In this document: piece by piece, positions 726 to 42,648 of the stretch
Layout: every line of letters begins with the position of its first letter
Numbering within the stretch: the stretch's first letter is position 1
Assembly: GCA_029786595.1 (NCBI GenBank)
Contig: JAFLXO010000003.1
Span: 4,990 to 68,989, forward strand
Direction of reading: 5' to 3'
DNA from: Nitrososphaerota archaeon
GTDB taxonomy: Archaea > Thermoproteota > Nitrososphaeria > Conexivisphaerales > UBA164
DNA length: 64,000 bases
The notes under the pieces: generated by a model
Seen by the model: the letters and a program-made list of their open reading frames with translations, nothing else
The model's database searches: none
Told to the model about the DNA's origin: nothing
Made by a program: the position numbers and the translations under genes

Positions 726-1508
726 CTATTTCAGCGCGCTGATAACGTTTAACGGCATCTTCCTTACGATTGCTTCTTTTATACGGTCTATGACTTCAGA
801 GGACGTCTCCCAGACATCACGTCTCTTTGGCGGTCTTAGGATTGTCCCGTCTATTTTCATCGTCCCTTTTTGATGTACGTTAAAGAGGTACTGATAGACG
901 ATGTCGCCTACGGTTTCTTCTAGCACAGACTCCATACCAAATATAGATTTATATGTGATGGTTACCTCGGAGAAATCCAGGTTAAGGTGGCCGCTTTCCA
1001 TCTTCAAGTCTCCAGTGAAAGATGTTTTGTTCTTGGTGTCTGTTGGAGTAATGGTCAGGGAGTATCCGTTTATCTGCTTGTTGAGCACATTATGGTTCCT
1101 CAGGTGCTGAATGTTTCTCAACGCCGTGGTATACACCGTTATGACCCTGTCTATTGCGTTAGGCTTCTGCTCTAGTATTATTTCTTGTCCTGCCAGTATG
1201 AGGAATTCTGACCGCGTCTCATCCGGCTCAGCATGGTTGCCATTGAAGTCTTCTCTTGGACCGTGTCTTAGGAACCTATCGATGCCTTTCAACAAGGCCA
1301 CCTTCTTTATCAGGAGGTCAGAGTCCGGTACAGAGACCCTGTAACGGTAATTAATGTCTGGTATCCTTTTGACATGGTACTTCCTGATGAGGTACCACCC
1401 CAGGGGGGTGTTAAGCAAGTATGGTATGTCTTTTAATGTTTTTACCGCCTTGTCGTCTGGTAAGACCATCATATCGGTTCTTGAAGCGTCTACGAGGAGG
1501 TGTATCAT
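726..1508 (-). CDS. AL-tail paralog family member (subtype A)
   Basis: 260-aa ORF. The core LIRKYHVKRIPD..YRVSVPDSDLLIKKV is shared with neighbour 1767..2540. It ends in the family tail KMPLNVISALK. Confidence 0.7.
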   Translation of the reverse strand: MIHLLVDASRTDMMVLPDDKAVKTLKDIPYLLNTPLGWYLIRKYHVKRIPDINYRYRVSVPDSDLLIKKVALLKGIDRFLRHGPREDFNGNHAEPDETRSEFLILAGQEIILEQKPNAIDRVITVYTTALRNIQHLRNHNVLNKQINGYSLTITPTDTKNKTSFTGDLKMESGHLNLDFSEVTITYKSIFGMESVLEETVGDIVYQYLFNVHQKGTMKIDGTILRPPKRRDVWETSSEVIDRIKEAIVRKMPLNVISALK

Positions 1509-1512: not shown

Positions 1513-1770
1513 CTATTCGTCTCTATCTAACGTCTTTGCCTCAGCTATCAAATTCTCTGGGTTAGTATACTCTTCAACCCGGACATGGCGACCGAGCACT
1601 TCGTCGACCACTGCCCGTACTGTCTTGAACGTCAGCATTTCATTTGAATTAAGCACTGCTGATAGGAGAATCTCTCGGTTTTTATACCACTGCACGACTA
1701 TCACCCTCCATATATTAACTTCGTCAGGAACTGTCAGTGGACGCGGCTTATTAGCCTGCCACCATGTCAT
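1513..1770 (-). CDS. small hypothetical protein (85 aa)
   Basis: Only the distal part (MTWWQANKPRPL...) of track ORF 1513..1995 is free of overlap. The ATG at 1770 forms an ATGA start/stop overlap with the stop of 1767..2540. Confidence 0.5.
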   Translation of the reverse strand: MTWWQANKPRPLTVPDEVNIWRVIVVQWYKNREILLSAVLNSNEMLTFKTVRAVVDEVLGRHVRVEEYTNPENLIAEAKTLDRDE

Positions 1771-2540
1771 TCTAACGCATGCATAACAGCAATAGGCACT
1801 TCTTTGACTATCGCGTCTCTTATCATATCGGCCATATCGAATATCATGCGAATACGGTTGATTGTGGATTTCAATGTTATAAAAGCCCCATCTATCTTTA
1901 TGGTCTGGGGGCGTTCGTCTGAAGGAGTGTTGCTGAAGTTGACATTGTTTATGAACATTTCTCGTACAGCCTCTCCTAACTCTTCTTTCATACAAAATAG
2001 AAACCTGTAGTAGATTTCTGCTTTTGGGAACTCAATGCTGAGATGTCTGCTCTTTACGGCGACGTCTGCTATAAGAGCGAGTTGTCTTTCGGTATTGATC
2101 GGTTTGATGGTAACCGTATATGGGGGTATTCTTCTTATGAGGGTCTTATAGGCTTTCAGCCGTCTGATGTCATCCATCATGGTCTTATAAGCAACAAAAA
2201 CCATGTTTAGCTTTCGTGACCGGTTCGTCATGAACAACTCGTTCGCTATGGAAGTTAGGAATGCCGGGCTTGAGACTTTAAGTTCACCGCCCGTTACGTC
2301 GTTCCTGAGGTATTTGTGAAGGTCTTTCATACAGATTATCTTCTTTGTTAACCGGTCTGATTCAGGTACTGATATTTTAAAGATGCCCTTAGACCCCATA
2401 CCCCTCAGGCGGTATTTCCTTATCAGATAATATATGAATGGGGTGGCAAGTTCTGGTGTTGTAGCCTGTTCTGGTTTCGGGGTGTTATCTGGGTCGGAAA
2501 GGTACACAGCGCCTAAAGACGGATACAGATATAAGTCCAT
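1767..2540 (-). CDS. AL-tail paralog family member (subtype A)
   Basis: 257-aa ORF. The core LIRKYRLRGMG..FKISVPESDRLTKKI is paralogous to 726..1508. Tail is KEVPIAVMHALE. Confidence 0.7.
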   Translation of the reverse strand: MDLYLYPSLGAVYLSDPDNTPKPEQATTPELATPFIYYLIRKYRLRGMGSKGIFKISVPESDRLTKKIICMKDLHKYLRNDVTGGELKVSSPAFLTSIANELFMTNRSRKLNMVFVAYKTMMDDIRRLKAYKTLIRRIPPYTVTIKPINTERQLALIADVAVKSRHLSIEFPKAEIYYRFLFCMKEELGEAVREMFINNVNFSNTPSDERPQTIKIDGAFITLKSTINRIRMIFDMADMIRDAIVKEVPIAVMHALE

Positions 2541-3730: not shown

Positions 3731-4561
3731 TCAATTTTTGAGGCTTAGTATTGGTGTCAGGGGCATGTCGTGTGCCACAGCCGTGGCTACTGCAGTTCTT
3801 AGGTCGCCGTCATATTTTCTTCGTTGTTTTGGTGTCACCACGACACCCTCAGATTCAAACTTGGCGCCGTGGTTAATCATCATCTTGAAATAATCCTTCC
3901 TGACCACATAATTATCCCAGAAGGGGTCTAGCAGACAGGCCAAGGTCGTATGAGGTGGTGTAAGGAGCTGCCATAGATCTGATGGTGATTTAAGCCTAGC
4001 GTATGTGAACGAACATTTGAACCGTTCTCCTACCACGTTCAAGTCTATGAACCCAAGTTTCATACTCCTGAACCTATGGGGGGTGATGGTGAAGACGATA
4101 GTGTTGACTTTCACTGTGGCTGGCTTGTTCCTGAGTAAAGTTTCTAAGACCATATCATATGTTGTTTTTATATCTAAGATGTGGGTTGTGTCCATTGCCA
4201 GCCCTTCTGGGGTGTTTATGTTTTTGAAGACGATGTTTTTAAGGGTGTCTTGCGTTATCGTCTTGTTCTCTGTTTCACTAACTGGGTCTGTGACCTTTGT
4301 TTCCCAGTCATATTGGGCCAAAGACGAAACCTCGTCCAACTTCCTGACGATTTGATATGTTTTCTCGTCTACCGTGGCCTGGATAAAGATTTCTTCACTA
4401 TTGTACTGGGATGTAGGCTGTTTTCTTACCAGGGTAGTAGGATAGTTTTTCATTAGAAAGGCGGCGATTCCGGTTTTAAGTGATAAATTGTTAGAAAATG
4501 CCCGCCCATCATTGGACAGAGCATACGTTATGTCGCCATCTTCATGTATATAGATATACAT
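3731..4561 (-). CDS. AL-tail paralog family member
   Basis: 276-aa ORF with a GGAGGG motif upstream. Tail is VATAVAHDMPLTPILSLKN. Confidence 0.65.
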   Translation of the reverse strand: MYIYIHEDGDITYALSNDGRAFSNNLSLKTGIAAFLMKNYPTTLVRKQPTSQYNSEEIFIQATVDEKTYQIVRKLDEVSSLAQYDWETKVTDPVSETENKTITQDTLKNIVFKNINTPEGLAMDTTHILDIKTTYDMVLETLLRNKPATVKVNTIVFTITPHRFRSMKLGFIDLNVVGERFKCSFTYARLKSPSDLWQLLTPPHTTLACLLDPFWDNYVVRKDYFKMMINHGAKFESEGVVVTPKQRRKYDGDLRTAVATAVAHDMPLTPILSLKN

Positions 4562-4828: not shown

Positions 4829-5515
4829 TCAGCCCATAGCAACAAATACGGGCAACGGGATCCCGCTTATTATGCATTTTCTTATCGCAGTCCGTGTTTC
4901 GTTTGATATTAGCCCCAGGTATGGTTTCTTGAGTTTTATAGGCATACGGTATTTTATAACTTCACGATAGCCAAAAACCCCTTCTGATGTCTCTATAGCA
5001 ACCGCCTTCAAAAGGTTTGCGCTTATACTTGCAAGGGGGTATTTGACAAACATGATCATATCCATCGGGGTGATGTCTGCCCAACACGTGAAGACTGCGT
5101 TGTTTGTCATCGTTATAGCAGCAATCGTGTGCCCGTTTTCATCATCATAGGGGACGATTTTCACATGGATTTTTTTGACGTCGAACTCCACGGCCTTGTT
5201 TGCCTCAAGCATTTTGAAGTATCCTAGCCCCCTTTCTACAGCAGCCTGTTCCTCAGCTACCTCTTTTTTACTAAGCAGCCCTGCTAGTATACGTTCCATT
5301 TTAACACTCGAGATATATGGTCCAAGTTTCATAATTTCAACAATTTCGTCTGGGACCATCCAAACTTCAGTCTTTGGTTTCAATGTTGTTTTTCTGACGC
5401 ATGTGCCTTCTTTTCCTATCCTGAGAAGGAAGAGGGTGGCACAAGCAGCCTTAGCTGAATAATTCACGTCTTCTGTTTTAAAAGAGATCATCCCATAACT
5501 GAAGTCTATTTCCAT
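4829..5515 (-). CDS. AL-tail paralog family member
   Basis: 228-aa ORF. It has the N-terminal family core (ACATLFLLRIGKEGTCVRK..EVWMVPDEIVEIMKLGPY) and the tail RKCIISGIPLPVFVAMG. Confidence 0.65.
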   Translation of the reverse strand: MEIDFSYGMISFKTEDVNYSAKAACATLFLLRIGKEGTCVRKTTLKPKTEVWMVPDEIVEIMKLGPYISSVKMERILAGLLSKKEVAEEQAAVERGLGYFKMLEANKAVEFDVKKIHVKIVPYDDENGHTIAAITMTNNAVFTCWADITPMDMIMFVKYPLASISANLLKAVAIETSEGVFGYREVIKYRMPIKLKKPYLGLISNETRTAIRKCIISGIPLPVFVAMG

Positions 5516-5593: not shown

Positions 5594-6349
5594 TTATTTG
5601 AGCGCCATGACCACTTCTATCGAGACGCCAGTGTCTATAGCCTTTAACACAAGAGGGCTGGTTTCATTTGTAAGCGCAATACTACGTGTTTTCATAGGCA
5701 CTTCTAAGGCCACCATGGCTTGCTGCTTGTTATTTGAGGATGTTCCAATAGCGAATAGCATGGTGTCGTTCATAAGGAGAGCGGTGTATAGTGAATTTCT
5801 TATATGAGAACGGACGTTTCTTTTAGGGTCGCTGACGGTTTTGATGACATCGTTGGTGTTTAACTGAATTAAGTATTTGACTGGTGTGGTTAAGTTGGCT
5901 GTTATTGTATAGAGCCTGAACCAACCTAACGGTCGTGGCTGGTTCTCTGTGAGGCGTATCGTGATTTCTGGGTTTTTTGACACCGATACTGTTTTCCCAT
6001 GTGATAATTGGGTTTTAGCTTTTAGCCCACGGTCAATCATTTCTTGTTTTGAAGCGATTTCTGCTAAATCTAAGTTTCCTGACAGCGCCCGTTCAATGGT
6101 TCGGTTATTGACACCATATGACACCATGTTAATTAAGTCTACCACCGGTTTTGGCACCGACCACACCTGGTATCCATGCGTTTTTGTAGATGCCGGCTCG
6201 TTTTTTATAAGTGTTCCATTTTTTGCGATGGCCAGGATTATGCGCGCGGTGAGAGCGCTTCCTGGGGCTACAGTGTTGTTTTTAGTCCTAAATATTGTTT
6301 CATAATCAAGACTTATTGTGACCTTCTCGTTCATTAACCACCACCTCAT
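5594..6349 (-). CDS. AL-tail paralog family member (subtype B)
   Basis: 251-aa ORF. It is clearly alignable with 9232..10038 (ARIILAIAKNGTLIKNEPAS..GYQVWSVP..LINMVSYG..PEITIRL). Tail is KAIDTGVSIEVVMALK. Confidence 0.75.
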   Translation of the reverse strand: MRWWLMNEKVTISLDYETIFRTKNNTVAPGSALTARIILAIAKNGTLIKNEPASTKTHGYQVWSVPKPVVDLINMVSYGVNNRTIERALSGNLDLAEIASKQEMIDRGLKAKTQLSHGKTVSVSKNPEITIRLTENQPRPLGWFRLYTITANLTTPVKYLIQLNTNDVIKTVSDPKRNVRSHIRNSLYTALLMNDTMLFAIGTSSNNKQQAMVALEVPMKTRSIALTNETSPLVLKAIDTGVSIEVVMALK

Positions 6350-6436: not shown

Positions 6437-7456
6437 TCACTTAAGCGATAACATCACAGTCAGTGGGATATTGTTTGTTATCGCTGTAGCCACGTCGTCC
6501 CAGGTAAGGTCGCCTAGCCGTTCTGTCGAAACGGCGGTTGTCGGGTTTTTGACTTTATAAACCCCTCTCATTAAGGTTGGTAAATCCCGACTGGCCAAAA
6601 AACCTGACTTGAGCAGGCGAGTTATGAAAAACCTAGGATAATGGTTTTTCGATATCTTGATGACCTTTATCGTTGTCCCTTCAAGGGTCAAATAAATGTC
6701 ATAGATGGGGCGGTGTCTGCGCCACTGTCTTGATTTTTTGACCGTTATTGTGATACTTCCAAATCGAGTCTGTGTTGTCATAGTCTTTCCAGAGATGAGC
6801 GCCCGCTCCTTTGCTTTGATTAAACGTTCACGCTCCTTTGCCTTTTCAACCCCTTTAACGCCCAACTCGTATCCATTTGGGGTATCTGGGTCGAACGCTC
6901 TGCATATGCTCCTGGTCTGGAATTTTGTTGCTACCAAGAGTTTAGTCATCGCAGCAGGATTTACGTTTAATTTTAGTGTATTATCTAGGCCTGGAGTAAT
7001 TCCACACAACGTTGATTCCTTTCCAAGAAATGTAAGGAGGTTCATCAACCCTTGGCCCCTTCTCAGCATTACGCCTCCCAGGACGCGGTTGTTATCAACC
7101 AAATCTATGTTTATCCCTATGGGACGACCAACATACAGCGTCGCATTGACAGGTCCTGGCGAGTTCTCCCTCTTTATAACCTGCCTTATAGATTCAAATA
7201 TAATCCTGTTTTTTGCATGTCGCGTCGCTGTAACTAGTTTCTTGCCAATCTCGATGAGCTCTGGATCGGTGGTTTCGAAGACGTTCTTCTTGACCCGTGT
7301 TCCGAGTTTCGCTACTAAATATAACAGGGCCAACCCGCTCTTGGTGCCAACGGCTACCCAGCCACCAGTGTCAGGGAATACGATTTTCATTGAGTTAAAC
7401 CATCCTGGCTTTAGATATATCTCGATTGTGGTCTTTAGCATTGTCTCACCTATCAA
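6437..7456 (-). CDS. AL-tail paralog family member (subtype C)
   Basis: 339-aa ORF alignable along its length with 11178..12191 (GWVAVG..GTRVKKNVFETTDPELIEIGKKLVTA..ICRAFDPD..KAKERERLI). Tail is ATAITNNIPLTVMLSLK. Confidence 0.75.
   Translation of the reverse strand: MIGETMLKTTIEIYLKPGWFNSMKIVFPDTGGWVAVGTKSGLALLYLVAKLGTRVKKNVFETTDPELIEIGKKLVTATRHAKNRIIFESIRQVIKRENSPGPVNATLYVGRPIGINIDLVDNNRVLGGVMLRRGQGLMNLLTFLGKESTLCGITPGLDNTLKLNVNPAAMTKLLVATKFQTRSICRAFDPDTPNGYELGVKGVEKAKERERLIKAKERALISGKTMTTQTRFGSITITVKKSRQWRRHRPIYDIYLTLEGTTIKVIKISKNHYPRFFITRLLKSGFLASRDLPTLMRGVYKVKNPTTAVSTERLGDLTWDDVATAITNNIPLTVMLSLK
7226..7305. repeat. 80-nt tract about 90 percent identical to 11970..12049
   Basis: Hand alignment gives 72/80 identical bases, including exact runs cgctgtaactagtttcttgcca and tcgaagacgttcttcttgacccg. 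It lies in the N-terminal coding part of the subtype C paralogs. Confidence 0.8.
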
Positions 7457-7590: not shown

Positions 7591-8373
7591 CTACCGTTGC
7601 AGACTTTCGACGACACCAATGTCGACATCATATTTGATGGCCGTGTAGACCGTTTTCCCAAACTCCGGGGTCCATAGAGGGAGGGCGTTGAACGACTTGC
7701 TACTGATTTTGACCACCTTTGCCCCATCGAATACCGAGTTTGGGGTGAAGGTGCTTCTCATCCTCTGAGGACAGGTCGTATAGTATTTTCCATCGAACCT
7801 GATGACGCCGTATTCAAAAATTTTCTTCCTCAACGCCCTGCCGACCCATACCAGGGGGTTGCGCAATATCGTTATGAAAGTCCTCTCAGATGCGTAATCT
7901 GTTTTGAAGGCTACGAAATGCTTGGCGGTCTTGTATGTGACAGTATTGGCCCATTCGTTATCGATTTTTCGGTGCAGCACAAGGACGGCGCCGTTGGGTT
8001 GAGTGACGATAAACGGTTTGGTTTCAGGCTCAGAATGCGCTTCGACGGCTCGTGCAATGATCTCGAGCTCTGCATCGGCGCCTTTCAGGTCTGAAAAGTT
8101 TCCCGAATACAGCGCCGTTTCTATCTTTCTCGGGAAACGGGTGCTATGGCACGCCAGATTTATCATTTTCAAGAGGCTTGTTGGTATTTTCCAGGTCTGC
8201 ATCCGGTGTTTGGAGGTGTTGGTCTCATACGTTCTAACGCACTTCCCCATCGAACCTATCCAGAGGAGTATCTGGGCGTTTAACACCGATGTTACCGGAT
8301 ACCACCGCCTGCCTTTGACCACAAAACTTGGCGACCCATTAAAATCGATGCTTATGATTGCGGTATCTGTCAT
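7591..8373 (-). CDS. AL-tail paralog family member (subtype D)
   Basis: 260-aa ORF and tandem paralog of 8376..9149 (NAQILLWIGSMGKCVRT..MQTWKIPTSLLKMINL). Tail is TAIKYDVDIGVVESLQR. Confidence 0.7.
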   Translation of the reverse strand: MTDTAIISIDFNGSPSFVVKGRRWYPVTSVLNAQILLWIGSMGKCVRTYETNTSKHRMQTWKIPTSLLKMINLACHSTRFPRKIETALYSGNFSDLKGADAELEIIARAVEAHSEPETKPFIVTQPNGAVLVLHRKIDNEWANTVTYKTAKHFVAFKTDYASERTFITILRNPLVWVGRALRKKIFEYGVIRFDGKYYTTCPQRMRSTFTPNSVFDGAKVVKISSKSFNALPLWTPEFGKTVYTAIKYDVDIGVVESLQR

Positions 8374-8375: not shown

Positions 8376-9149
8376 TTAATCACCTCTGGTTTGGAGGGCT
8401 AACGCCGCAGTAAGGGGCAGATCGTCTTCAATAGCCCTGATTAGCCCGTTGATCGCGTCTATATCGAAATTTCTGGCCGTTATTTTGCCGTATTTAACGG
8501 CCCCGTCCAGGTAGTACACGCCTGTTTCATCAATCGTGTTTTGGCAGTATCGTATCCCGTCAAGGTCGAAACATGAAGGATGGAACGGGTTGTAATACAA
8601 TACGTCCTTGATAAAACCGAGTGGGGTGTTGACCATTTTTAAGAAAACGGTCTCGTCAAATATAGATGTAAGGAGGTCTAGTTTGACATGCCTCGTCTGA
8701 CACGTCAAGACGTCTATTGGCCTTTTTTGCGGTCTGAAGTTGAAATCTCGGTGCACTGTTATCATGCCGTGTGGAAAGGGTATGAGCACCTGCGCTGCCC
8801 CGGAACATAACTTTGCATATTCGTCGAGGTTGCCCTTCAGTGCCGCTATTTCTTGCTCAAGATAAGGATTCAGGATCAATTCTGCCCCAACAACGCTCTT
8901 TTTGATGGAATTTTGGTAGTCGAACGTTTTGGGGCCGTACCCTGCCAGAAGTATGAAGTCTGCCACCTCGGGAGGGACCTTCCATCGCTGGTGTGCGTTC
9001 TCATGTTCAGCGCTGACGAAGACCCCATGACGGCCAATGAGCAACATCACCAATGCTTTTAGGACCGGGGCCAGATACAACTCATGCTGCCTGACATTGA
9101 ACGAGTAGTGCTGGCTTGGTTTGACCATTATTTCTTCCATTTGTTTCAC
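8376..9149 (-). CDS. AL-tail paralog family member (subtype D)
   Basis: 257-aa ORF (LKALVMLLIGRHGVFVS..QRWKVPPEVADFILLAGYG). Tail is IRAIEDDLPLTAALALQTRGD. Confidence 0.7.
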   Translation of the reverse strand: MKQMEEIMVKPSQHYSFNVRQHELYLAPVLKALVMLLIGRHGVFVSAEHENAHQRWKVPPEVADFILLAGYGPKTFDYQNSIKKSVVGAELILNPYLEQEIAALKGNLDEYAKLCSGAAQVLIPFPHGMITVHRDFNFRPQKRPIDVLTCQTRHVKLDLLTSIFDETVFLKMVNTPLGFIKDVLYYNPFHPSCFDLDGIRYCQNTIDETGVYYLDGAVKYGKITARNFDIDAINGLIRAIEDDLPLTAALALQTRGD

Positions 9150-9231: not shown

Positions 9232-10038
9232 TTACTGCTCTTTTAGCGCCAACACCGCTGATACTGGGATGCCTTTATTGGTAGCCTTGGATATTGCGTC
9301 ATATATTTCAGGTGTAAGATGACTCCTTGGCGTCCCTTTAGGTATCTCAAGTATTTTCAACATCTGTTTAGTTTGGAACAAACCCCATGTGTCTGACCGG
9401 GTGTAGACAACCCCATCTACGAATACCGCTTCAAGATCTTTCGTATTTATATCAAAACGTACAGCTGATAATGGGGTTTCGATGAACCTGACGACGTCCG
9501 CCTTGGTCATTAAAACTAGATATTTGATGGGAAGTTTCAACGCTGCCGTTATGACATATGGGTTGTAGCTGAAATTATTCCCCGGTGCAGTACCCCAGTC
9601 TGCTAGTCTGATTGTGATTTCTGGACGTTGTAAGGCCAAGACAGTGTTCTTCCGCTTCAGACGGCGTAGAACAGCCAAAGCCCGGTCAATAGCATCTTGC
9701 GTTGGACGAAGGCTGACTTCATCAAGAGTTCCTGATAACACTTGTGCTATGGTTTGTTCCGGGGTACCGTAGTTTACCATGTTGATGAGGGTCGCCAATG
9801 AGGAAGGAACCGACCAAACTTGATATCCACAAGTTCTAGCAGAAGCGGGCCTATCCTTTACAAACATGCCTTTCTTTGTGATAGCCAGGAGTATACGTCC
9901 AGAGAGCGATGCCCCAGGCTTGATACACTCAGTCCGAGTTTCAAATCCGATACCATCCCAGAAGCTTATTTTGATGTTTTCAAAATTATCCGTATTTTTA
10001 ACTATCAATGTTATCTCACTCCTTTCATGCAAGCACAA
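9232..10038 (-). CDS. AL-tail paralog family member (subtype B)
   Basis: 268-aa ORF paralogous to 5594..6349 (GRILLAITKKGMFVKDRPAS..GYQVWSVP..LINMVNYG..PEITIRL). Tail is ISKATNKGIPVSAVLALKEQ. Confidence 0.75.
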   Translation of the reverse strand: MCLHERSEITLIVKNTDNFENIKISFWDGIGFETRTECIKPGASLSGRILLAITKKGMFVKDRPASARTCGYQVWSVPSSLATLINMVNYGTPEQTIAQVLSGTLDEVSLRPTQDAIDRALAVLRRLKRKNTVLALQRPEITIRLADWGTAPGNNFSYNPYVITAALKLPIKYLVLMTKADVVRFIETPLSAVRFDINTKDLEAVFVDGVVYTRSDTWGLFQTKQMLKILEIPKGTPRSHLTPEIYDAISKATNKGIPVSAVLALKEQ

Positions 10039-10812: not shown

Positions 10813-11181
10813 CTAAAAGAAGGGGTCCAGGCCGTCGTTCGGTATCAGTCCCCAGGACTTCATGTAATGTGAAGACCTGTCCGGGGTCTCAAGACGGCCG
10901 TTCTCATAGAATAGGACCCTGACCGACTGCGCCTTTATGGACTCTAGGGCCGCCTTGAATCTCCCAGGGTTGGTGCTTTTTAGTTTTTTGTTGATGTCAT
11001 CGACAGCCTTTGCTGGGAGGTCCACGATATATACGACGGCATGACGTTGCCTGTTGGCCATGGCCCTCAAGTCTAATGTAAACAGAAGCCCGGCAGTCTC
11101 AGCCCCATTGACATATGGTATAAAGCTTTCGACCCCATGGCAATCTGCGATGCCGAACATCTTTGTTTCCAATCTCATCAC
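10813..11181 (-). CDS. hypothetical protein
   Basis: 122-aa ORF with a 4-nt overlap with the stop of 11178..12191. Confidence 0.55.
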   Translation of the reverse strand: MMRLETKMFGIADCHGVESFIPYVNGAETAGLLFTLDLRAMANRQRHAVVYIVDLPAKAVDDINKKLKSTNPGRFKAALESIKAQSVRVLFYENGRLETPDRSSHYMKSWGLIPNDGLDPFF

Positions 11182-12191
11182 CTCTCTTCGTTATTTGGCG
11201 GGTTTAACGCTATCACAGAAAGTATTGGAAGTTTCTGAGCAACGGCTGTCAGAATGTCTGACCATTCGACATCTCCGTCTTCATTAAAGGAAGCCGAGAT
11301 TACCGAATTGGGTGTTTTCATTATATACGATCCTTCCATTATGGCGAGTGGCCGATCCCTGAACGCGATCTTGATTGCATCGTCTTTATTGAGCTTTTTT
11401 ATGACTTTGGTGATGGTGATAGTATTCCCCTGCAAGATCATGGTCATATCATATGCAGGTGTAAACCAGGACCGTGCCCTTGATTTGACCAGCTTTATTG
11501 CGACGTTCCCGAGCGGGGTCCTACGCGTCAGCTGGCTCCCAGAAACAAGGGCTCTGAACTTCGCTTCAATGACACGTTTCCGTTCTTTTGCCCTTTCTAT
11601 GCTTTTGACCATTTCATCATACCCACCTGGGTTGTCAGGGTCGAACGCCCGGCAGATACCGCCTAATGGGGATTTGCTGGCTGTCAGAATCTTGGCCATG
11701 GCCCCCTGGTCTATCTTCAGTTCAAACATGTCATCAGTGGTGACACCGCATAACGTCGATGCCTTGCCAATGAAGGTAAGGAGGTTCACCAGGCCCTGAC
11801 TTCTGGTCAATGTAATCTTGCCGATGTCGCTAGACCCGGCCTTCAAAGTCACCCTGGTCGCCCGGATGAGCCCAAAATCCAACACTGCGTTTGGCTGGTC
11901 TGTGCTCGGTTCCCTATCAACTATCTTTCTGGCAGCCTTGAACACGACCTTATGTTTCTCCTGATGGTTCGCTGTAACTAGTTTCTTGCCAAGATCGATG
12001 ATCTCTGGGTCAGTGGTCTCGAAGACGTTCTTCTTGACCCGGGTCCCGAACCTGCTTATCAAATATTGTAGAGCCATCCCGCTTGCCCCATCTACAGCTA
12101 CCCAGCCCTTGAATTCTGTGAACACTACCCTCATTGAATTTTTGTTGCCAGGTTCTGAAAGATGTATCTCCACAGTTGCCGTATTGGTCAT
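11178..12191 (-). CDS. AL-tail paralog family member (subtype C)
   Basis: 337-aa ORF paralogous to 6437..7456. Tail is TAVAQKLPILSVIALNPPNNEER. Confidence 0.75.
   Translation of the reverse strand: MTNTATVEIHLSEPGNKNSMRVVFTEFKGWVAVDGASGMALQYLISRFGTRVKKNVFETTDPEIIDLGKKLVTANHQEKHKVVFKAARKIVDREPSTDQPNAVLDFGLIRATRVTLKAGSSDIGKITLTRSQGLVNLLTFIGKASTLCGVTTDDMFELKIDQGAMAKILTASKSPLGGICRAFDPDNPGGYDEMVKSIERAKERKRVIEAKFRALVSGSQLTRRTPLGNVAIKLVKSRARSWFTPAYDMTMILQGNTITITKVIKKLNKDDAIKIAFRDRPLAIMEGSYIMKTPNSVISASFNEDGDVEWSDILTAVAQKLPILSVIALNPPNNEER
11970..12049. repeat. 80-nt tract about 90 percent identical to 7226..7305
   Basis: See 7226..7305; same hand alignment. Confidence 0.8.
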
Positions 12192-12273: not shown

Positions 12274-12891
12274 TCATGTCAACGCCATCGCCGTTTCTAA
12301 TGAAACGTTTTTTGTTATAGCCCGTTCCAGGATGTCGTTGAACGTTGCCTCGTCGAACCCTGCTTTTAGGATGGCCTTATCAGTGATGGCGTCGAGGTGC
12401 AAGGTTTTATCAACCAGTTGGGGTATTATCCAATCCACCCAACTGACATCGACAGCTGGTCCGGAATACATCGCATGGATTTTGGCCGATCCGATAGTCA
12501 ACACCACAGTAATCTTGCCAACATCATACGTACCAGGGTGCACAGGGGAGGTAGACGAGAGGCCATGCTTTATTGTTTCTTTGAATCTGAGTGTAAAGGA
12601 CGCCCCGCTTTCAAACATGTAATTACAACTACCGGTCTCTCTGAGCGTCTTTGTGAGCCTGAGAATTACCTCTTCTTTTGCGAGCTTATAACGTATAGTT
12701 TTGACGATTTCCTTAGGGTCTGAAACGTTGTATGTCCAGCCGTCAAGGCGGTCAGGAGTGACAAATTTCTGTAATGTGTCTGGCAGTGAGTTGAATATGC
12801 CGACCAGCTCATTTTGCTCCTTTTCTGGCAGGGTTATGAACCTGCGCATTTCTGGACTTGCTAGTACGTCTATGAGATTTTTCGCTTGCAT
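12274..12891 (-). CDS. AL-tail family member (tail only, different N-terminal body)
   Basis: 205-aa ORF. Tail is ILERAITKNVSLETAMALT. The start overlaps the 3' end of the phosphatase gene, so it may begin at a downstream Met. Confidence 0.55.
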   Translation of the reverse strand: MQAKNLIDVLASPEMRRFITLPEKEQNELVGIFNSLPDTLQKFVTPDRLDGWTYNVSDPKEIVKTIRYKLAKEEVILRLTKTLRETGSCNYMFESGASFTLRFKETIKHGLSSTSPVHPGTYDVGKITVVLTIGSAKIHAMYSGPAVDVSWVDWIIPQLVDKTLHLDAITDKAILKAGFDEATFNDILERAITKNVSLETAMALT

Positions 12892-13321: not shown

Positions 13322-13323
13322 CC

Positions 13324-22485: not shown

Positions 22486-22809
22486 TTATACTAGGTTGAA
22501 CACGTCTGTATAATAGAAATCAGCGTCAGTGACGGTCAGCCCCAGAGGAACCCCTTCTGTCGATATGCCTATCTTGGTGCCGTCAGTCAACAACACCTCA
22601 ACCGTTTTAATGACGGCGGGATCTCCAGGAGATAACGCCGCCGCAGCAGAATCAAATTTGTTAAGGTTGGCGGCTTTAATTGCTGCACAGAGATCTCTGA
22701 CGGCTTCTTCTGTCAACGGTGAAACACTCTTCTTGATCAATTTTGCGTTAAATGAGTCATCATCGACAGGCTTGACCATAAACATGACTGTCTTGCCAAA
22801 GAGTTTCAT
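22486..22809 (-). CDS. hypothetical protein
   Basis: 107-aa ORF with a 4-nt overlap with 22806..23141. Confidence 0.55.
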   Translation of the reverse strand: MKLFGKTVMFMVKPVDDDSFNAKLIKKSVSPLTEEAVRDLCAAIKAANLNKFDSAAAALSPGDPAVIKTVEVLLTDGTKIGISTEGVPLGLTVTDADFYYTDVFNLV

Positions 22810-23141
22810 ATCTTGTCATCACCTAACGCTACTGCTTCGGCTACGCTGATATTATATTCTAACGCTGTTTTGATCCTTCCAAATGTTATGTCTTTTTCGT
22901 TAAACGGGGAAGGCTCGCCGTCGACTTCTCCGAGCATGAACCCAACGTTCACCAACATAGGTATTATCTCCCTGACGTGCTGCGGGAAGGTTTTTATCTG
23001 GACGCGGCTTAGGCCGTTAAACCTGATGGTTGGGGTCTCTACACTGATCAGTGAAATCGCTTCTTTTGGAAAGAAGCAGCACTCTATTTTGATTTTCTCT
23101 GGCTTGTACCGCTTCTTTGTGATGGTCGGCATGCTAAACAT
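22806..23141 (-). CDS. AL-tail family member (short form)
   Basis: 111 aa. Tail is RIKTALEYNISVAEAVALGDDKI. Confidence 0.5.
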   Translation of the reverse strand: MFSMPTITKKRYKPEKIKIECCFFPKEAISLISVETPTIRFNGLSRVQIKTFPQHVREIIPMLVNVGFMLGEVDGEPSPFNEKDITFGRIKTALEYNISVAEAVALGDDKI

Positions 23142-33045: not shown

Positions 33046-33825
33046 TTACGACAGGGCCTGAATTGCTTCTATTGGTATGTCCTTTTTAATCGCCGTTATG
33101 ACACCAGTTTTGTACTGGGGTGTTATCAGTTGGATGGATTTCTGTACTATTACCGGGTTATTCCGTCTTATGACAACGGCGTGACCGTCAGCATAACTCA
33201 AGTCCATGGTCTTAAAGTCCTTGCCGTTTATCTTGACGTAGTCTTCAATGATGTCGTATTTGTTGTTTAAATCCGACACAACGCTGGCGACTGGATTGCT
33301 TTTTATCTTAAGGAGCGTATAAGGAGACAGAATATTGATTAAATACTGGATGTTGATAGCCTTGGTTTTTATGCTTAAAAGATACGCTATCTGGTTGAAT
33401 GGCGGGACTCTCGTTGGGTTTATGGTCAGCGTCCCTGAGTTGAACGGGATTGATATGGCGTAGCCAGATGTCCCGGTCGTGGTAGCATGTAAGCCTAACT
33501 GGTCGAGCTCCTTCTTGGCCTTGATATATGTGTCAACCATCTCATTAATACCCTGTTCATCGTCTAACCCTAACTTTACCTCAAGTTCATGATAACTACG
33601 GGCGGTCAGACTTTCATCTAACATATACAGCAGCAGGTTGGCAGTAAATTCAGAAACTTCATATGTCTGGATGGCGTGCTTAGTGTTGACGGTGTTGACC
33701 AACGTGCCATTTTGCGCGAGGATCATCAAAGCCCGCATGTCCAAAGGAGACAATGACAACGTGATAAGAGGCTCTTTACCGATCTTCAATGATGGGCGGT
33801 TGTTAAAATTTAATACTACTTTCAT
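33046..33825 (-). CDS. AL-tail paralog family member (subtype F)
   Basis: 259 aa, clearly paralogous to 40614..41390 (VVLNFNNRPSLKIG..MRALMILAQNGTLVNT..IQTYEVSEFTANLLLYMLD). Tail is ITAIKKDIPIEAIQALS. Confidence 0.75.
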   Translation of the reverse strand: MKVVLNFNNRPSLKIGKEPLITLSLSPLDMRALMILAQNGTLVNTVNTKHAIQTYEVSEFTANLLLYMLDESLTARSYHELEVKLGLDDEQGINEMVDTYIKAKKELDQLGLHATTTGTSGYAISIPFNSGTLTINPTRVPPFNQIAYLLSIKTKAINIQYLINILSPYTLLKIKSNPVASVVSDLNNKYDIIEDYVKINGKDFKTMDLSYADGHAVVIRRNNPVIVQKSIQLITPQYKTGVITAIKKDIPIEAIQALS

Positions 33826-34367
33826 CCTTCCACCTTACTAGGGTCCGATAAAGCGCTAGCAACCTCAAACGGAATGTTATGTCTCAATGACGTCCTTACC
33901 ACCTCTGCTGTTGATTCGCAAACAACCGTCGGAGTCGTGTTATCTAGTATAATGGTGTCGTTTATGATACGTTTAGCGTGCTGCTGGGGCGTGATACTAT
34001 ATAGAGCTTTCGGATCACAGACCAAGTCAACGAGCCCTTCATGCGGCGGATACAATACTCTAAATAGGTGCATGTAAGAGTGCAACATCATCTGAGTAAC
34101 CTCGATTTTCAGGACGCCATTGAACGTGATATCGAACCGGTTTGAGGGCAGGGGGTGTATACTCTTGGAGTGTTTATACTCATTAATGTTAAGAAACGTA
34201 AAAGTGCCGTCAGATGTTGTAACCGTCACATTTTTCCTTGCAAATATATCACCAATCGCTGTTTTGATCACTTTGATTTCATCGGTGATAGGGCCTAATA
34301 TGGATTGAATCTTCTCCGGGATGTCGAAATTGTCATATAATACCTTCGATATTTTTGCCGTGACCAC
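33822..34367 (-). pseudogene. C-terminal fragment of a disrupted AL-tail family gene (subtype G, homolog of 41402..42196)
   Basis: VVTAKISKVLYDNFDIPEKIQ..FTFLNINEYKH..LKIEVTQ..LYPPHEGLVDL.. aligns with residues from about 95 to the end of 41402..42196. Tail is LRHNIPFEVASALSDPSKVEG. Only a GTG start is available, so it may still be expressed as a truncated protein. Confidence 0.6.
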
Positions 34368-35666: not shown

Positions 35667-35763
35667 CCTCCTGTGTCAAATGATTTAGCCATTCGGCATC
35701 GTCCGGATGTTGCGGGTCTGGTGCTGACCCTCCCCGGCCCAAGCCAACGCAACAGAACCCCCA

Positions 35764-35955
35764 TACGAACCCGGCAAGCCTGTCTGGGATTTCTATCCTG
35801 AGACGTCCATTATCCGTTAGTGACACCTTACCGTTTGAACAGAGTATGGCCCAGACCCCATCCCGTATTTTTCCGTTTTCAGTGTAAAACGCGGCGGTTT
35901 CTACCCTGCTGCCAAATACGATCGAGTTATGGGATACATACACGGTTGCTGTCAT
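35764..35955 (-). pseudogene. N-terminal fragment of the disrupted subtype G family gene
   Basis: MTATVYVSHNSIVFGSRVETAAFYTENGKIRDGVWAILCSNGKVSLTDNGRLRIEIPDRL aligns with the N-terminus of 41402..42196 (..LVLAILCSNGKISSPTPENIRIEIPDRF). The 405-aa track ORF continues as read-through into the insertion. Confidence 0.6.
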
Positions 35956-35981: not shown

Positions 35982-36740
35982 TTATTTGGTGTTTGAACTA
36001 AGCGCTTCTGCTACCTTTATCGATACCCCGTTCTTCATGGCTGTTAACACTGTCCCGATAATGTTTTTGTTGATATTTTGTATCATCGTTGGCTTAGAAC
36101 TAAGGTACTGGGTGACGAATACCAGCCCATCTGCGATAAGAATCTGACCGTCATGGAGCAAATACCCACCCAACAACATTGATAGCGTGTTTATGGGGTT
36201 TCGTATGAGATCCGGGACCATTATTCTTGGTATCGACACGTCAGTCAGCAACACTTGTGCTTTTTTGTTGATCATTAAAACCCGCCAGAGCTTGGCGTTT
36301 GGGGCCCTTGACAAAAAGGTCTCAACCGTCTTGTTGGTAAGGGTGATTTCTACGGCGTCTTCTAACTTCATCACACAATAGATTATCTCATCAGCGTCCT
36401 TTGGCGTCATTTTGATTAATGAAGCGTCGTCGGCTTTTAAATCGGAGTCGCTGAGACCTATATGGAGGTCCGCAGGGTTGACATGTGTTATATCAGCCAT
36501 CATCATATACCTGAGCAGGGTGTCAGAGACGTATATCTCGCCTGATATGCTGGCCTGGTGCCCGTTTACTGAAAATACCTTCTCGATAAATGCTCGCGGG
36601 ATCGTTGAAAACTCAAACTCATTTTTGGGTATAAAATACGGAGATGCCACGCCGCTTTTTGAAATGTCGATCCTGGTTGTTTTCTGGGATGCGTCCTCTG
36701 GGAATGCTGTTAGTATTTTTACAATCGCCAAGGAGGTCAC
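35982..36740 (-). CDS. AL-tail family member (distinct body)
   Basis: 252 aa. Tail is VLTAMKNGVSIKVAEALSSNTK. Confidence 0.6.
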   Translation of the reverse strand: MTSLAIVKILTAFPEDASQKTTRIDISKSGVASPYFIPKNEFEFSTIPRAFIEKVFSVNGHQASISGEIYVSDTLLRYMMMADITHVNPADLHIGLSDSDLKADDASLIKMTPKDADEIIYCVMKLEDAVEITLTNKTVETFLSRAPNAKLWRVLMINKKAQVLLTDVSIPRIMVPDLIRNPINTLSMLLGGYLLHDGQILIADGLVFVTQYLSSKPTMIQNINKNIIGTVLTAMKNGVSIKVAEALSSNTK

Positions 36741-37274: not shown

Positions 37275-37934
37275 TTAAGGACTGAGCGCTTCGAGGGCGT
37301 CGATTGGAACTCCAGTCAGGATTGAAGACACCACAGTTTTAGGTATCTTTCCGATTTTACTGTATAATGTTTTGTAGCCATCATTGTATTCTGTTATCCA
37401 TTCTGTATTATCTGGTAACGACATTGAAAGACCCGAAATGACCCCGTTCAAGTTCTCTACTAGATTGAAGATGAGTCTCCTGGTTATCTTGACGTTCATT
37501 AACCGCAAACTAACCTCGTGGTTTTTAAGAATGATTACGCCAACATCATTTTGTGTGAATATGACTGAGCAAGTTATCCCGTCATTTGAGATTTCCACTG
37601 GAGTTTCTGTCGATAAAGTCCATATATCGCGCATTTTTATGATGTTATCTAGGTTCACTGAAAATGGGTTGCCGGCTAAAAGGCAGTCCCTTACAACATT
37701 CCAAGTTGAGGTCATCAGAGGGGTTGTTTCTAATAGATAAACGCATATCTTGGCTGTTTCTTTTGATACATGCGCCTCAAAAATGAGGGCATCGCGTCTT
37801 CGCCAGCGATTTTTAAGCGCCATGACGATTATTGGGCCGGCGACGTCATTAAACTTTGTTATATAACAGCTTAGAGGTAGTTTGTCCAGTCCGGTAAACG
37901 TAAACCAGTTCAACGAGGAAGCGACATACTGCAC
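37275..37934 (-). CDS. AL-tail family member (distinct body)
   Basis: 219 aa. Tail is VVSSILTGVPIDALEALSP. Confidence 0.6.
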   Translation of the reverse strand: MQYVASSLNWFTFTGLDKLPLSCYITKFNDVAGPIIVMALKNRWRRRDALIFEAHVSKETAKICVYLLETTPLMTSTWNVVRDCLLAGNPFSVNLDNIIKMRDIWTLSTETPVEISNDGITCSVIFTQNDVGVIILKNHEVSLRLMNVKITRRLIFNLVENLNGVISGLSMSLPDNTEWITEYNDGYKTLYSKIGKIPKTVVSSILTGVPIDALEALSP

Positions 37935-38333: not shown

Positions 38334-38699
38334 CTAATATAGCGCTATCGCGGTTTGGATTGATATGCCGTTAAGGATGGCCATTATAACGGATTTTAAC
38401 AATTTGGCTGATTTTACTTCCTTGGCCCCGTCAATGTCGATGATATCAGAGTTGCCGTCTCCGTTCAAAAGCCAAATGACGCCGAGCACATGCTCTAGCT
38501 TTCCATTGACTCTAAAGGCGTCACACGAACAAACAAAATCACTCCTTACGGTGATGGTGTTGAACCCAGTCCTTATTTTGGTTGTCCAGAAATCCTGGTC
38601 CGGGCGTTTTTTAGAGACTATGGTGGTTTTGTTGAATTCAAACCGGCGTTTCTCATATCCATGCTTCACATTTAACACCCAAACTGGGCGGGGACGCAA
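38334..38699 (-). CDS. AL-tail family member (short subtype E)
   Basis: 121 aa, paralogous to 42286..42648 (FNKTTIVS..WTTKIRT..ITVRSDFVCSCDAF). Tail is VIMAILNGISIQTAIALY. The start is uncertain because it overlaps the small ORF 38672..38833. Confidence 0.6.
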   Translation of the reverse strand: MRPRPVWVLNVKHGYEKRRFEFNKTTIVSKKRPDQDFWTTKIRTGFNTITVRSDFVCSCDAFRVNGKLEHVLGVIWLLNGDGNSDIIDIDGAKEVKSAKLLKSVIMAILNGISIQTAIALY

Positions 38700-39462: not shown

Positions 39463-39765
39463 CTACGGCGTAAACTGCACTGTAGTAGTGACTCCGATTT
39501 TTTTGTCATTACGCCAGACGCTGTCTACCTCATGGTTACGACCTGGAGCCAAAACCGCCTCTTTCGCGGTTGCTTCGTCTTCATACCCAGAGAGCCACAT
39601 CTCCCCGTCGTTGTTTAGATCGAGAATGACGTAATTTAAGTTCTCAGGGAAGATTCCCAACTCAATTTCGCGGATATCTTCTACGTAACATGTTTCTTTG
39701 ACGTATTTAACAAGGTTCGGCCAGTATTTCTCTAGTTTTCCGTAGATTCTACCATCATCTATCAT
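39463..39765 (-). CDS. hypothetical protein, small paralog set 3
   Basis: 100 aa. YGKLEKYWPNLVKYVKETC..DIREIELGIFPEN..GEMWLSGYEDEATAKEAVL aligns with 16252..16560. Confidence 0.6.
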   Translation of the reverse strand: MIDDGRIYGKLEKYWPNLVKYVKETCYVEDIREIELGIFPENLNYVILDLNNDGEMWLSGYEDEATAKEAVLAPGRNHEVDSVWRNDKKIGVTTTVQFTP

Positions 39766-40613: not shown

Positions 40614-41390
40614 TTACTTCAGTGCTGTCAGCGCCTCTAATGGAATGTCTTTCATGATTGCTGTTATGATGTCGGATTTGTATTGTCTCGAGAGTTTTTG
40701 GACTTTCATGACCTTTTTTACTGGGATGCCTCGCCTTATCACCGTGGTCAGGATCTGGTCAGACGGCGGCCAGACCTTGATGGTATAATCTTTGCCGTTT
40801 ATTTTAATATAACCGTCAGTGATCATAAACGGGCTGTTCAGATCAGACACGACCTTCTTTATAGGGTCATTCTTCAAATATAGCAGACTGCTAGCGGAAA
40901 AAAGGACCGTAAGATATTGAATGTGGAGGTCCAAAGTCTTTATATCGAAGAGAAACACGTTGGGATTATTGTGATAAGTGGTAGAGAACGTCACAGGACG
41001 TATCCTTAATGCCCCTGAGTTGAACGGGATTGATATGCTCCCACCACCCTTCCCATGTGCAGGCGTGATTAACGCCTCAAATTCTTTCCTGGCCTCGACA
41101 TGCTTGTCGACCATGGCGCCGAGCTCTTTCACGCTCCTGACCCCACCAATCTTCCTTTCAAGTTCTATGGAATCTGGGGAGTCCAGGATATACCGCAGCA
41201 GATTAGCGGTGTCTTCTGGGACTTCGTAGGTGTGGATGAGGTGGGGTGATAAGATGGTGCTGATCTTTGTGCCGCTCTCTCCAAGGATTATCATCGCCTG
41301 TAGATGCAGCCCCCATGGTGCTAGCTTATACGGGCCGTCGTCCCCGATCTGTATTGTGGGATGGTTGTTGAAATTTATTATCACGCGCAT
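40614..41390 (-). CDS. AL-tail paralog family member (subtype F)
   Basis: 258 aa, paralogous to 33046..33825. Tail is ITAIMKDIPLEALTALK. Confidence 0.75.
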   Translation of the reverse strand: MRVIINFNNHPTIQIGDDGPYKLAPWGLHLQAMIILGESGTKISTILSPHLIHTYEVPEDTANLLRYILDSPDSIELERKIGGVRSVKELGAMVDKHVEARKEFEALITPAHGKGGGSISIPFNSGALRIRPVTFSTTYHNNPNVFLFDIKTLDLHIQYLTVLFSASSLLYLKNDPIKKVVSDLNSPFMITDGYIKINGKDYTIKVWPPSDQILTTVIRRGIPVKKVMKVQKLSRQYKSDIITAIMKDIPLEALTALK

Positions 41391-41401: not shown

Positions 41402-42196
41402 CTAGTTCGTTTCTGATATCAAAGCCTTAGCCGCATTGAACGATATCTGGCGCTTTAAAGCCACAGACAAGACCTCGGATGTCATATAACGATCCGCCCA
41501 TGGGGTCGTGCCGTCTATGACAATATTGCCATCTATGGCACAGCGCGCATTTCGGAGTGCCATGCAGGTCGCGGAACTTCCAAGTTTGCTAGCCAGCTCA
41601 ATAAGACCTAAATGTGGCGGAAGTACCATCTCATAGAAGGTGGTTTCATGCCTTACTCGTATGCGCCAAAGTTCGATTTTAACAGTTCCTTCGAACTTTA
41701 TATCAAGATAACCTAAAAACGTGCGTAGACTTTTGGTCTTTGGACGCACCGAATGCCATTTATGAGGTATGAACGTAAAGACGCCACCGTCGAATGCTGT
41801 GACTACGGTCGGCTTCTCCCGTTCTAGACTGTCTATTATTGTGTCGAATGACGCTGCCTGCTTTATAATCTGGTTAAGGGCTCCAGGAATCCTTTCAGGG
41901 GTGTCAAAATTGTCATGCAATATCTGGGGCAATATATTGTCCACGACGTCAGAAGTGAACCGCCAATGGCCTACCTTGTATGTATCCAGAATGGCGTTCA
42001 CTACTTCAATAAAGCGGTCTGGGATTTCGATTCTTATATTTTCTGGGGTGGGTGATGATATTTTCCCATTAGAGCAAAGTATCGCCAAGACGAGGTTCCT
42101 TACTTTAACCCCATTATTGAGGAACGACATTTGCTCGTTCCTGTCGCCCATCGTGATCACATTGTTTGTTATAAAAACAACCGCCATGCGCCTCAC
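41402..42196 (-). CDS. AL-tail paralog family member (subtype G, intact copy)
   Basis: 264 aa. It is the intact counterpart of the split gene at 33822..35955. Tail is SVALKRQISFNAAKALISETN. Confidence 0.7.
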   Translation of the reverse strand: MRRMAVVFITNNVITMGDRNEQMSFLNNGVKVRNLVLAILCSNGKISSPTPENIRIEIPDRFIEVVNAILDTYKVGHWRFTSDVVDNILPQILHDNFDTPERIPGALNQIIKQAASFDTIIDSLEREKPTVVTAFDGGVFTFIPHKWHSVRPKTKSLRTFLGYLDIKFEGTVKIELWRIRVRHETTFYEMVLPPHLGLIELASKLGSSATCMALRNARCAIDGNIVIDGTTPWADRYMTSEVLSVALKRQISFNAAKALISETN

Positions 42197-42285: not shown

Positions 42286-42648
42286 TCAGCCCAGCGCCGC
42301 TACCGCCTGGATCGGTATACCTTTTTGGATGGCCGTGAAGACCGCTTCTCTCATTTCAGTTGTCTTCGCCACCGGCTTTCCGTCAATCCACATGTCGAAC
42401 TGTTCTTTAAAAAGCTCCTCCCAGATGTTATTCAATATGTGCCGTAGCTGGTCCTCTTCACAGCCAAATAACTTATCGCAGGAGCAAAACAGAGCGCTTT
42501 GTATAACGATTTTGTTGGAGGGGGTCTTTATCACAGTTGTCCAGCCCGATACCTTCTCAAAGTTAGAGGTGACGATGGTGCTATTGAACACAAACTTACG
42601 GTGGGCGTGCTTATCTGGGGCTTCGTGGGGGTTACTCGTTGGACTCAC
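42286..42648 (-). CDS. AL-tail family member (short subtype E)
   Basis: 120 aa, paralogous to 38334..38699. Tail is VFTAIQKGIPIQAVAALG. Confidence 0.6.
   Translation of the reverse strand: MSPTSNPHEAPDKHAHRKFVFNSTIVTSNFEKVSGWTTVIKTPSNKIVIQSALFCSCDKLFGCEEDQLRHILNNIWEELFKEQFDMWIDGKPVAKTTEMREAVFTAIQKGIPIQAVAALG

Follow-up and report, generated by a model that had tools for sequence, protein, structure and literature searches.

A 64,000-nucleotide stretch of DNA from a Nitrososphaerota archaeon (contig JAFLXO010000003.1; the whole stretch is here called the window) carries at least 21 minus-strand open reading frames (ORFs), about a quarter of its genes, that end in the same short motif, hereafter the tail. 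The tail is predicted to fold as a two-helix hairpin, and it marks one ancient, fast-evolving orphan superfamily that is confined to a group of related, very large archaeal elements. With roughly even confidence, we take the tail to be an amphipathic hairpin that is the hallmark of a shared C-terminal domain and packs on that domain's own beta-sheet.

The focal tail and its gene, which lies in a tightly packed array 7 nucleotides (nt) from the next gene, are as follows.

40614..41390, minus strand: focal gene, group B, 258 amino acids (aa), an orphan with an AlphaFold2 (AF2) model
40614..40688, minus strand: focal tail, the stop and last 24 codons (residues 235-258 of ORF 40614-41390), delimited from the translation and the AF2 model

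Positions 40614-40695 (minus strand) hold the stop and the final 26 codons of this ORF, which ends in ...LSRQYKSDIITAIMKDIPLEALTALK before the stop. Helix 1 of the tail is QYKSDIITAIMKD, the turn is approximately D-I-P and helix 2 is PLEALTAL, followed by K. In the focal AF2 model, which was built from a 13-sequence alignment (overall predicted local distance difference test score [pLDDT] 83.8; predicted template modelling score [pTM] 0.78), the two helices span residues 235-247 (pLDDT 88-90) and 251-257 (pLDDT 76) on either side of the turn. In the model of a second, 120-aa protein (42286-42648), the helices span residues 97-109 and 113-119, again with a turn between them (best model pLDDT 75, pTM 0.67). 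In both models, the helices are predicted to have 13 and 7 residues with a 3-residue turn between them, in keeping with the helix-turn-helix-shaped terminal hairpin that the original prediction had read from the letters alone. No low-confidence linker precedes the tail in the AF2 models, and tail helix 1 (pLDDT 85-90) is among their best-predicted parts.

The tail is conserved as a peptide

A loose version of the tail pattern, sought in the final 14 residues of ORFs with a minimum length of 40 aa, occurred 18 times, compared with 0-2 times (mean 0.25) in shuffled sequences (n = 20). A hidden Markov model (HMM) of 25 columns, whose matches lay 0-9 residues from the C-terminus, found 21 ORFs in the window together with orthologs and paralogs on the contigs of related elements, and the tails aligned in register. 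Two further members lie just past the left edge of the window, in a contig that is 98.6% identical to it. A tail profile made from 16 members found the five held-out tails at the extreme C-terminus (E = 4e-8, 9e-5, 0.02, 0.02 and 0.15 among 313 ORFs). The original prediction had quoted eight tails as a constant element common to many paralogs. All eight are present on the minus strand with a stop codon directly after each, and all are real members, but the count was too low, since the tail HMM places at least 21 members in the window.

Across the last 15 codons of the 21 tails, pairwise identity is 0.47 at codon position 1, 0.654 at position 2 and 0.264, the random level, at position 3, and the near-invariant Ala, Pro and Leu residues are encoded by all of their synonymous codons. 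The location of the motif at gene ends in tightly packed arrays would suit a DNA or RNA element such as a promoter, terminator or recombination site. However, random identity at the third position and the use of all synonymous codons leave virtually no room for a cis-acting element of this kind or for recent gene conversion. Selection acts on the tail peptide, not on the DNA.

The residue pattern was derived from 47 non-redundant tails. Helix 1 starts with an [ST]-P-E N-cap and runs for 13 residues, with an apolar stripe at columns 7, 11, 15 and 19; the residue at column 18 is small, being Ala in 70% of tails and Ser or Cys in the others. Next comes a [GDN]-[VI]-[PS] turn, with Pro in 83%, and the seven residues of helix 2 follow the pattern [ILVF]-x-[AVT]-[AVIL]-x-[AS]-[LMF], in which Ala and Leu each reach 87%. 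Without exception, the conserved columns are cap, small or apolar residues, and all polar columns are variable. On a helical wheel, helix 2 is apolar or small over ~260 degrees of its circumference and must therefore be buried by something rather than exposed to solvent. Five of its seven positions are apolar or small in >75% of tails, a sixth is apolar in 57%, and no basic residue is conserved. The protein had been thought to end right after the 'AL' of helix 2, often on Lys, which raised the idea of a Lys-acceptor tail. Instead, 1-8 residues separate 'AL' from the stop, and Lys follows 'AL' in only 12 of the 47 tails; S, G, N and Q, found at the same position, commonly cap the C-terminal end of helices. 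With 1-8 residues beyond 'AL', a degron that depends on the terminal carboxylate was likewise rejected. A membrane anchor or sorting signal was also rejected, since an apolar stretch of only 7 residues cannot be a transmembrane segment.

Within the focal group (B), the tail is the most conserved 15-residue stretch. The second-best conserved stretch of this group is [WY]-x-V-P-x-x-h-h (h, hydrophobic; focal residues 51-67, ~41190-41240, minus strand), which forms a strand and the start of a helix in the N-terminal domain (N-domain) and was also seen by eye in groups A, D, F, G and J. The tail could make contact there, or the stretch could have a function of its own.

Most tail-bearing proteins have homologous bodies

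The original prediction placed the tail on very different bodies, which is mostly wrong. By BLAST alone, the bodies split into several small clusters. When a profile of group B bodies with the tails removed was run against 306 ORFs, the four best non-member matches of round 1 were all tail-bearing (chance ~3e-6). Named by their first coordinate, these were 1767 (E = 4e-4), 54674 (2.4e-3), 726 (2.7e-3) and 6437 (0.048), and further rounds brought in 6437 and 37275. Groups A, B, C, G and J were thus joined, giving 16 of the 21 proteins homologous bodies. Because these 16 tail-less bodies retrieve each other, they constitute one fast-evolving orphan superfamily. In a 20.7-kb stretch of a distant relative (locus L012) that has no DNA similarity to the window, the 15 best matches of the tail-less profile were exactly the 15 tail-bearing ORFs, eight of which had never been part of the training set.

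The bodies of groups D, E, F and H/I (five proteins) showed no link to the superfamily, even by a 47-sequence profile, and their hhalign values (P = 0.12-0.4) were the same as those of 25 negative controls. A shorter signal reaches further. The motif h-x-h-[DN]-G, a DG beta-hairpin, stands no more than 55 residues upstream of the tail in 11 of the 21 members, compared with 14 of 213 control windows and 1 of 59 non-family ORFs at the equivalent position (Fisher p = 4e-7). Three of the five profile-unlinked proteins (E and the two H/I proteins) carry it. In addition, the H/I model (four beta-strands, a helix, two strands and the hairpin) resembles the C-terminal half of the focal model. Homologous bodies, the shared DG motif and the similar architecture together indicate that the tail is the end of a common domain, not a tag on unrelated proteins.

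Long members consist of an N-domain, a beta-rich middle, the DG beta-hairpin and the tail. In the focal AF2 model, the N-domain has a beta-beta-alpha-beta-beta-alpha layout with a W/Y-x-V-P motif and is followed by a long helix, a beta-meander, two helices, an INGK beta-hairpin and the tail. The N-domain is absent from some members (33822-34367 and the E and H/I proteins), and the tail is present in all 22 database representatives of the family. What is conserved is therefore the C-terminal domain with the hairpin at its end, and the variation lies in the N-terminal part. Among family members scanned against Pfam, PHROG, NCBIfam and PADLOC, the tail never stood on a protein with a recognisable domain.

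The other tail-bearing genes of the window are the following.

33046..33825, minus strand: group B paralog, 41% identical to the focal protein; tail 33046-33120
4829..5515, minus strand: group B paralog; tail 4829-4903 (IISGIPLPVFVAMG)
5594..6349, minus strand: group B paralog; tail 5594-5668
7591..8373, minus strand: group B paralog; tail 7591-7668, D replacing the P/S of the turn
8376..9149, minus strand: group B paralog; tail 8376-8462, with 5 residues beyond ALQ
9232..10038, minus strand: group B paralog; tail 9232-9312
726..1508, minus strand: group A paralog; tail 726-800; tail-less body E = 2.7e-3 from the group B profile
1767..2540, minus strand: group A paralog; tail 1767-1841; tail-less body E = 4e-4 from the group B profile
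3731..4561, minus strand: group A paralog; tail 3731-3808
41402..42196, minus strand: group A paralog; tail 41402-41488
33822..34367, minus strand: group A member of 181 aa, naturally without the N-domain; tail 33822-33917; aligns to residues 89-259 of the 41402 protein
6437..7456, minus strand: group C paralog, 339 aa; tail 6437-6511; N-domain apparently duplicated (by eye); tail-less body E = 1.8e-3 in round 2
11178..12191, minus strand: group C paralog, 44% identical to the 6437 protein; tail 11178-11273
37275..37934, minus strand: group G member; tail 37275-37352; tail-less body E = 0.021; orthologs in loci L007 and L001
54674..55405, minus strand: group J member; tail 54674-54751; tail-less body E = 2.4e-3; adjoins a DUF2201 metallopeptidase/VWA gene
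35982..36740, minus strand: group F protein, 252 aa; tail 35982-36068; held-out tail E = 9e-5; body hhalign P = 0.12, at control level
12274..12891, minus strand: group D protein, 205 aa; tail 12274-12348; body unlinked
22806..23141, minus strand: group E small protein, 111 aa; tail 22806-22892; IRFNG motif upstream
38334..38699, minus strand: group H/I small Cys/His protein, 121 aa; tail 38334-38408; IDIDG motif 6 aa upstream
42286..42648, minus strand: group H/I small Cys/His protein, 120 aa; tail 42286-42360; AF2 model beta4-alpha-betabeta, then the hairpin

The two H/I proteins (38334-38699 and 42286-42648) have His14, Trp36, Cys55-Ser-Cys57-Asp and His70 as common invariant residues, and their ortholog in L001 has a weak precomputed match to the Pfam family Ada_Zn_binding. 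They may represent a zinc-binding mini-domain fused to the hairpin. A 405-aa ORF at 34738-35955 (minus strand) starts with ~60 residues of group A N-domain (47% identity to the 41402 protein); its remainder is rich in Arg, Gly, His, Ser and Pro and has no tail, and it adjoins the 181-aa N-domain-less gene 33822-34367. In the relative L007, a 182-aa gene is present alone. The two window ORFs could be a split or disrupted family gene or, alternatively, a fusion.

The tail does not match known helical modules

The tail had been likened to a truncated UBA/CUE-type module and tied to an E1/E2/JAB cassette encoded by the same element. It does share a loose G-h-[PS] ... A-L pattern and a helix-loop-helix start with UBA and CUE domains, among them the UBA at the C-terminus of archaeal NAC, and G-[IV]-[PS]-x-x-x-x-x-A-L superficially recalls UBA helices 1-2. 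However, profile searches gave no support. At E<=10, the 21 tails matched no UBA, CUE, TS-N, NAC, helix-turn-helix (HTH), helix-hairpin-helix (HhH), F-box or PRANC family in Pfam, and a tail profile found only chance helical matches among 177,635 PDB sequences. Against a verified profile of Rad23 UBA1/UBA2, hhalign aligned one column (P = 0.17). UBA and CUE domains are compact three-helix bundles in which helix 3 is needed for the fold and for the ubiquitin-binding surface. The tail has two helices only: helix 2 is followed by no more than 1-8 residues before the stop, which leaves no third helix. Direct sequence reading also shows that the spacing from the cap to 'AL' is one residue shorter than in UBA, and the conserved face of the tail is purely structural.

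The cassette itself stood only in part. The E1-like member is a genuine ThiF/E1 gene at 59953-60579 (minus strand; 44.7 bits, cut-off 28.1). A pair of JAB-like paralogs with 52% mutual identity stays below the Pfam threshold, and the 'E2-like' paralog pair and the 157-aa protein 58077-58550 have no Pfam or PDB sequence support as E2 or ubiquitin-like protein (Ubl). No gene of the window was confirmed as a Ubl. The ThiF, JAB, 'E2-like' and 58077 genes, all on the minus strand, together occupy 59953-60579, 60545-61306, 24005-24571, 58563-59387, 59400-59951 and 58077-58550. Presence of the ThiF/E1 gene and of two weak JAB paralogs in the same element would favour a truncated UBA/CUE-like or Lys-acceptor tail that is functionally tied to these genes. 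However, most family genes lie 5-55 kb away from them, nothing ties the tail to ThiF or JAB, and Lys is not conserved after 'AL'. The ubiquitin angle has no support, and we regard such a tail as highly improbable.

The same low probability attaches to a nucleic-acid-binding HTH or HhH motif. This reading has in its favour that the tail is shaped like a helix-turn-helix, that its G-[IV]-P turn resembles the G-h-G hairpin of HhH and that a TFB gene lies within the family array. Nevertheless, no HTH or HhH family matched at E<=10, a third helix for a tri-helical HTH core is missing and the residue pattern does not fit. Helix 2 has one consistently polar position and another that is polar in ~40% of tails, both variable; being short, apolar and devoid of a conserved basic residue, it cannot be a recognition helix. 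In the HhH hairpin, the backbone NH of the second Gly contacts phosphate; with Pro in its place in 83% of tails, this NH is lost. One match of the 12274 protein to HHH_9 (E = 0.22, residues 158-189) reaches into tail helix 1 (~182-194), but it is far below threshold and was taken as noise.

The second half of the tail is superficially F-box-like (h-P-h-E-h-h compared with L-P-x-E-h-h). An F-box or PRANC origin was rejected, as an F-box profile validated by its retrieval of Fbw7, beta-TrCP, Skp2 and >30 other chains gave P = 0.79 against the tails in hhalign and Pfam gave no match. Scans of window ORFs showed no Skp1 or cullin, and neither is known from Nitrososphaerota.

Possible cis packing, docking or co-assembly

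There are several ways in which the apolar face of the tail could be buried. If the hairpin packs on its own domain, the small residues A18, A27 and A30 would let the two helices cross tightly and the large apolar residues at columns 15, 19, 23, 25, 28 and 31 would create one continuous apolar face. This face would be buried in cis against the protein's own beta-sheet, closing the common C-terminal domain, and may add to self-assembly. We favour this reading because conservation is purely structural, AF2 is confident and places no flexible linker before the hairpin, and the tail is never found on a recognisable foreign domain. On it, the tail is most parsimoniously a structural or assembly element and not a ligand-binding module of the UBA, CUE or HTH type. 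Recent evolution follows ordinary purifying selection, and replacements in the tail stay within their residue class. Several observations nevertheless weigh against packing in cis. Insertions before helix 1 are tolerated (~22 aa in 7591-8373), so that the length of the linker before the tail varies. The model of 42286-42648 was built from 3 sequences, and its five models disagree (pLDDT 75 to 42); the support that pLDDT lends to burial in cis is, moreover, indirect. The A, P, A and L residues are kept at 70-87% on the five proteins without a body profile signal, and the tail is likewise kept on proteins of only 111-121 aa. It is the best-conserved part of proteins whose orthologs are 41-60% identical, compared with 90% for a neighbouring ATPase. 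Since the best-conserved stretch is retained on five bodies that give no signal, a shared external partner would be the simpler explanation of this retention.

Such a partner is the essence of a trans-acting docking or targeting tag, whose apolar face would insert into a groove of one shared partner; this might be a hub of the host, part of a particle or shell, or a machine that the element itself encodes, such as the MoxR/VWA pairs or the E1/JAB modules. We consider this tentative and rather less probable than not, although the points just listed speak for it, as do the ancient, individually retained paralogs, which recall poxviral ANK/F-box orthologue groups (PMC4353913), and the terminal amphipathic helix format of known targeting peptides (PMC11346464). 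On the other side, the tail has no conserved polar or aromatic anchor residue, AF2 shows a high-confidence hairpin without a flexible linker, no carrier of the tail has a recognisable domain that would set it apart in function, and body and tail co-occur strictly. Nor do the bodies show diversifying selection, which was rejected because their ratio of nonsynonymous to synonymous polymorphism (pN/pS) is 0.29, like that of other genes (0.31); the value for the tails (0.36) is ordinary as well. In its widest form, as a universal docking signal by which a giant element (185 to 430 kb or more) sends >25 effector or adaptor paralogs of ancient divergence to one common hub, the idea is possible but doubtful; the hub could serve particle packaging or recruitment to a host or element machine. 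Alternatively, two hairpins might pair as a four-helix bundle so that the paralogs form homo- or hetero-oligomers, for example, the subunits of one large structure. The conserved Ala and small residues at helix-crossing positions, the apolar stripe and the many ancient, non-redundant paralogs side by side in arrays would suit co-assembly. Against this, a 7-residue helix 2 is short for a stable bundle and the monomer models are already confident, and we judge co-assembly unlikely.

The tail is the one handle common to all members. As a structural cap it would provide a simple signature for recognising and annotating the family. As a docking tag it would allow a 25-residue peptide pull-down that could reveal the central partner of the whole effector repertoire of an uncultivated archaeal element. 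Although both family and element are new, the tail itself may prove to be an ordinary structural motif.

Comparison with known terminal motifs

Poxviral ankyrin proteins carry a two-helix truncated F-box (PRANC) at their C-terminus and fall into distinct orthologue groups (PMC4353913). In both cases, a large DNA element keeps many paralogs in separate orthologue groups, the extreme C-terminus bears a short, constant two-helix motif, and the bodies diverge far more than the tail. In contrast to the ANK/PRANC proteins, the tail has no sequence similarity to the F-box, and the bodies are not ankyrin repeats. If it were a docking tag, the tail would be an archaeal counterpart of the poxviral ANK/F-box strategy, derived from an unrelated fold.

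The encapsulation peptides of microcompartments are terminal amphipathic helices (PMC11346464). Like these and the cargo-loading peptides of encapsulins, the tail is a short terminal element on several proteins, with a conserved apolar face and a variable polar face. Encapsulation and cargo-loading peptides, however, sit on functionally different enzymes with recognisable domains and are attached through a poorly conserved flexible linker, whereas the carriers here belong to a single orphan superfamily and have no disordered linker in the AF2 models. When 42 window ORFs were scanned with Pfam and 10 with PHROG, no shell, encapsulin or capsid family emerged, although orphans could hide one.

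Rarity and age of the family

Family members had no match in Pfam, PHROGs, NCBIfam or PADLOC, and family profiles had none among PDB sequences. Neither AF2 model matched PDB or BFVD structures at E<=0.001; the query-normalised template modelling (TM) score reached at most 0.21 with the focal model and 0.32 with that of the small protein. An indexed search of 5.8e9 proteins yielded 7 clusters of the family, and an exhaustive HMMER search of 1.84e9 yielded 22 representatives. Family, ATPase and TFB queries found nothing in IMG/VR, GTDB representative genomes or JGI metagenome scans, and tblastn found no match in phage genomes. Exact-sequence look-ups of two window proteins gave no match either, probably because of differing start calls. 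The paralogs are ancient: for each of them, the divergent elements contain a separate ortholog (41-60% and 29-51% identity) that is closer to it than any paralog in the window.

The surrounding mobile element

Part of a 68-kb contig matches the window at 99.995% identity and part of a contig of 185,215 bp at 98.6%. A distant relative is located on a contig of 430,724 bp, and related loci are L004, L010 and L012. The contigs of 185 and 430 kb were binned with Nitrososphaerota. The window is part of a very large (185 kb or more) undescribed archaeal mobile element, which was not found in IMG/VR, GTDB representative genomes, phage genomes or the literature. All of its genes lie on one strand, in arrays that consist almost entirely of orphans, without tandem repeats, and neither a capsid nor a terminase gene was seen in the window. 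Borgs (PMC12660748) are likewise very large elements of archaea whose genes are arrayed on a single strand and encode mostly hypothetical proteins, with expanded families of paralogs. Unlike Borgs, the element lacks pervasive tandem repeats, and its metagenome-assembled genome is labelled Nitrososphaerota, not Methanoperedens.

Among the few genes with recognisable functions is a full-length TFIIB/TFB homolog at 2613-3515 (minus strand; TFIIB Pfam E = 7e-43 plus a zinc ribbon), which stands within the family array; its position is kept in L010 (12823-13743) and in L012 (17189-18106), the relative on the 430-kb contig. A MoxR-like AAA+ ATPase at 46987-48594 (minus strand) is 90% identical among three elements, two of which have little or no DNA similarity to the window, whereas the identity of tail-bearing orthologs is only 41-60%. 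Evolutionary rates thus differ extremely within the element. Two pairs of ATPase and VWA genes are present at 45346-46980, 46987-48594, 55426-56679 and 56737-58080 (all minus strand): one consists of the MoxR-like ATPase and a VWA protein and the other of a phrog_1297 ATPase (E = 1e-32) and a DUF2201 metallopeptidase/VWA protein. The phrog_1297/DUF2201 pair is immediately followed by tail-bearing gene 54674-55405 and an RNA-ligase-like gene.

The window shows an unusual concentration of RNA-repair-type functions. Three genes of the RNA ligase family lie at 16616-17296, 31660-32544 and 53286-54662 (minus strand), one of them a weak match and one known only through the Pfam annotation of the identical locus L004. 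A tRNA-Leu(TAA) gene is found at 26053-26138 (minus strand), a DHH/DHHA1 protein at 26186-27145, a dual-specificity phosphatase at 12809-13465 and an amino-acid kinase at 21137-21841. Further genes of the element encode a DNA ligase, an endonuclease VII, an RNase T-like exonuclease and a thymidylate synthase. A second small paralog pair, unrelated to the tail-bearing family and without the tail, encodes proteins of ~100 aa that are 46% identical to each other (16252-16560 and 39463-39765, minus strand).

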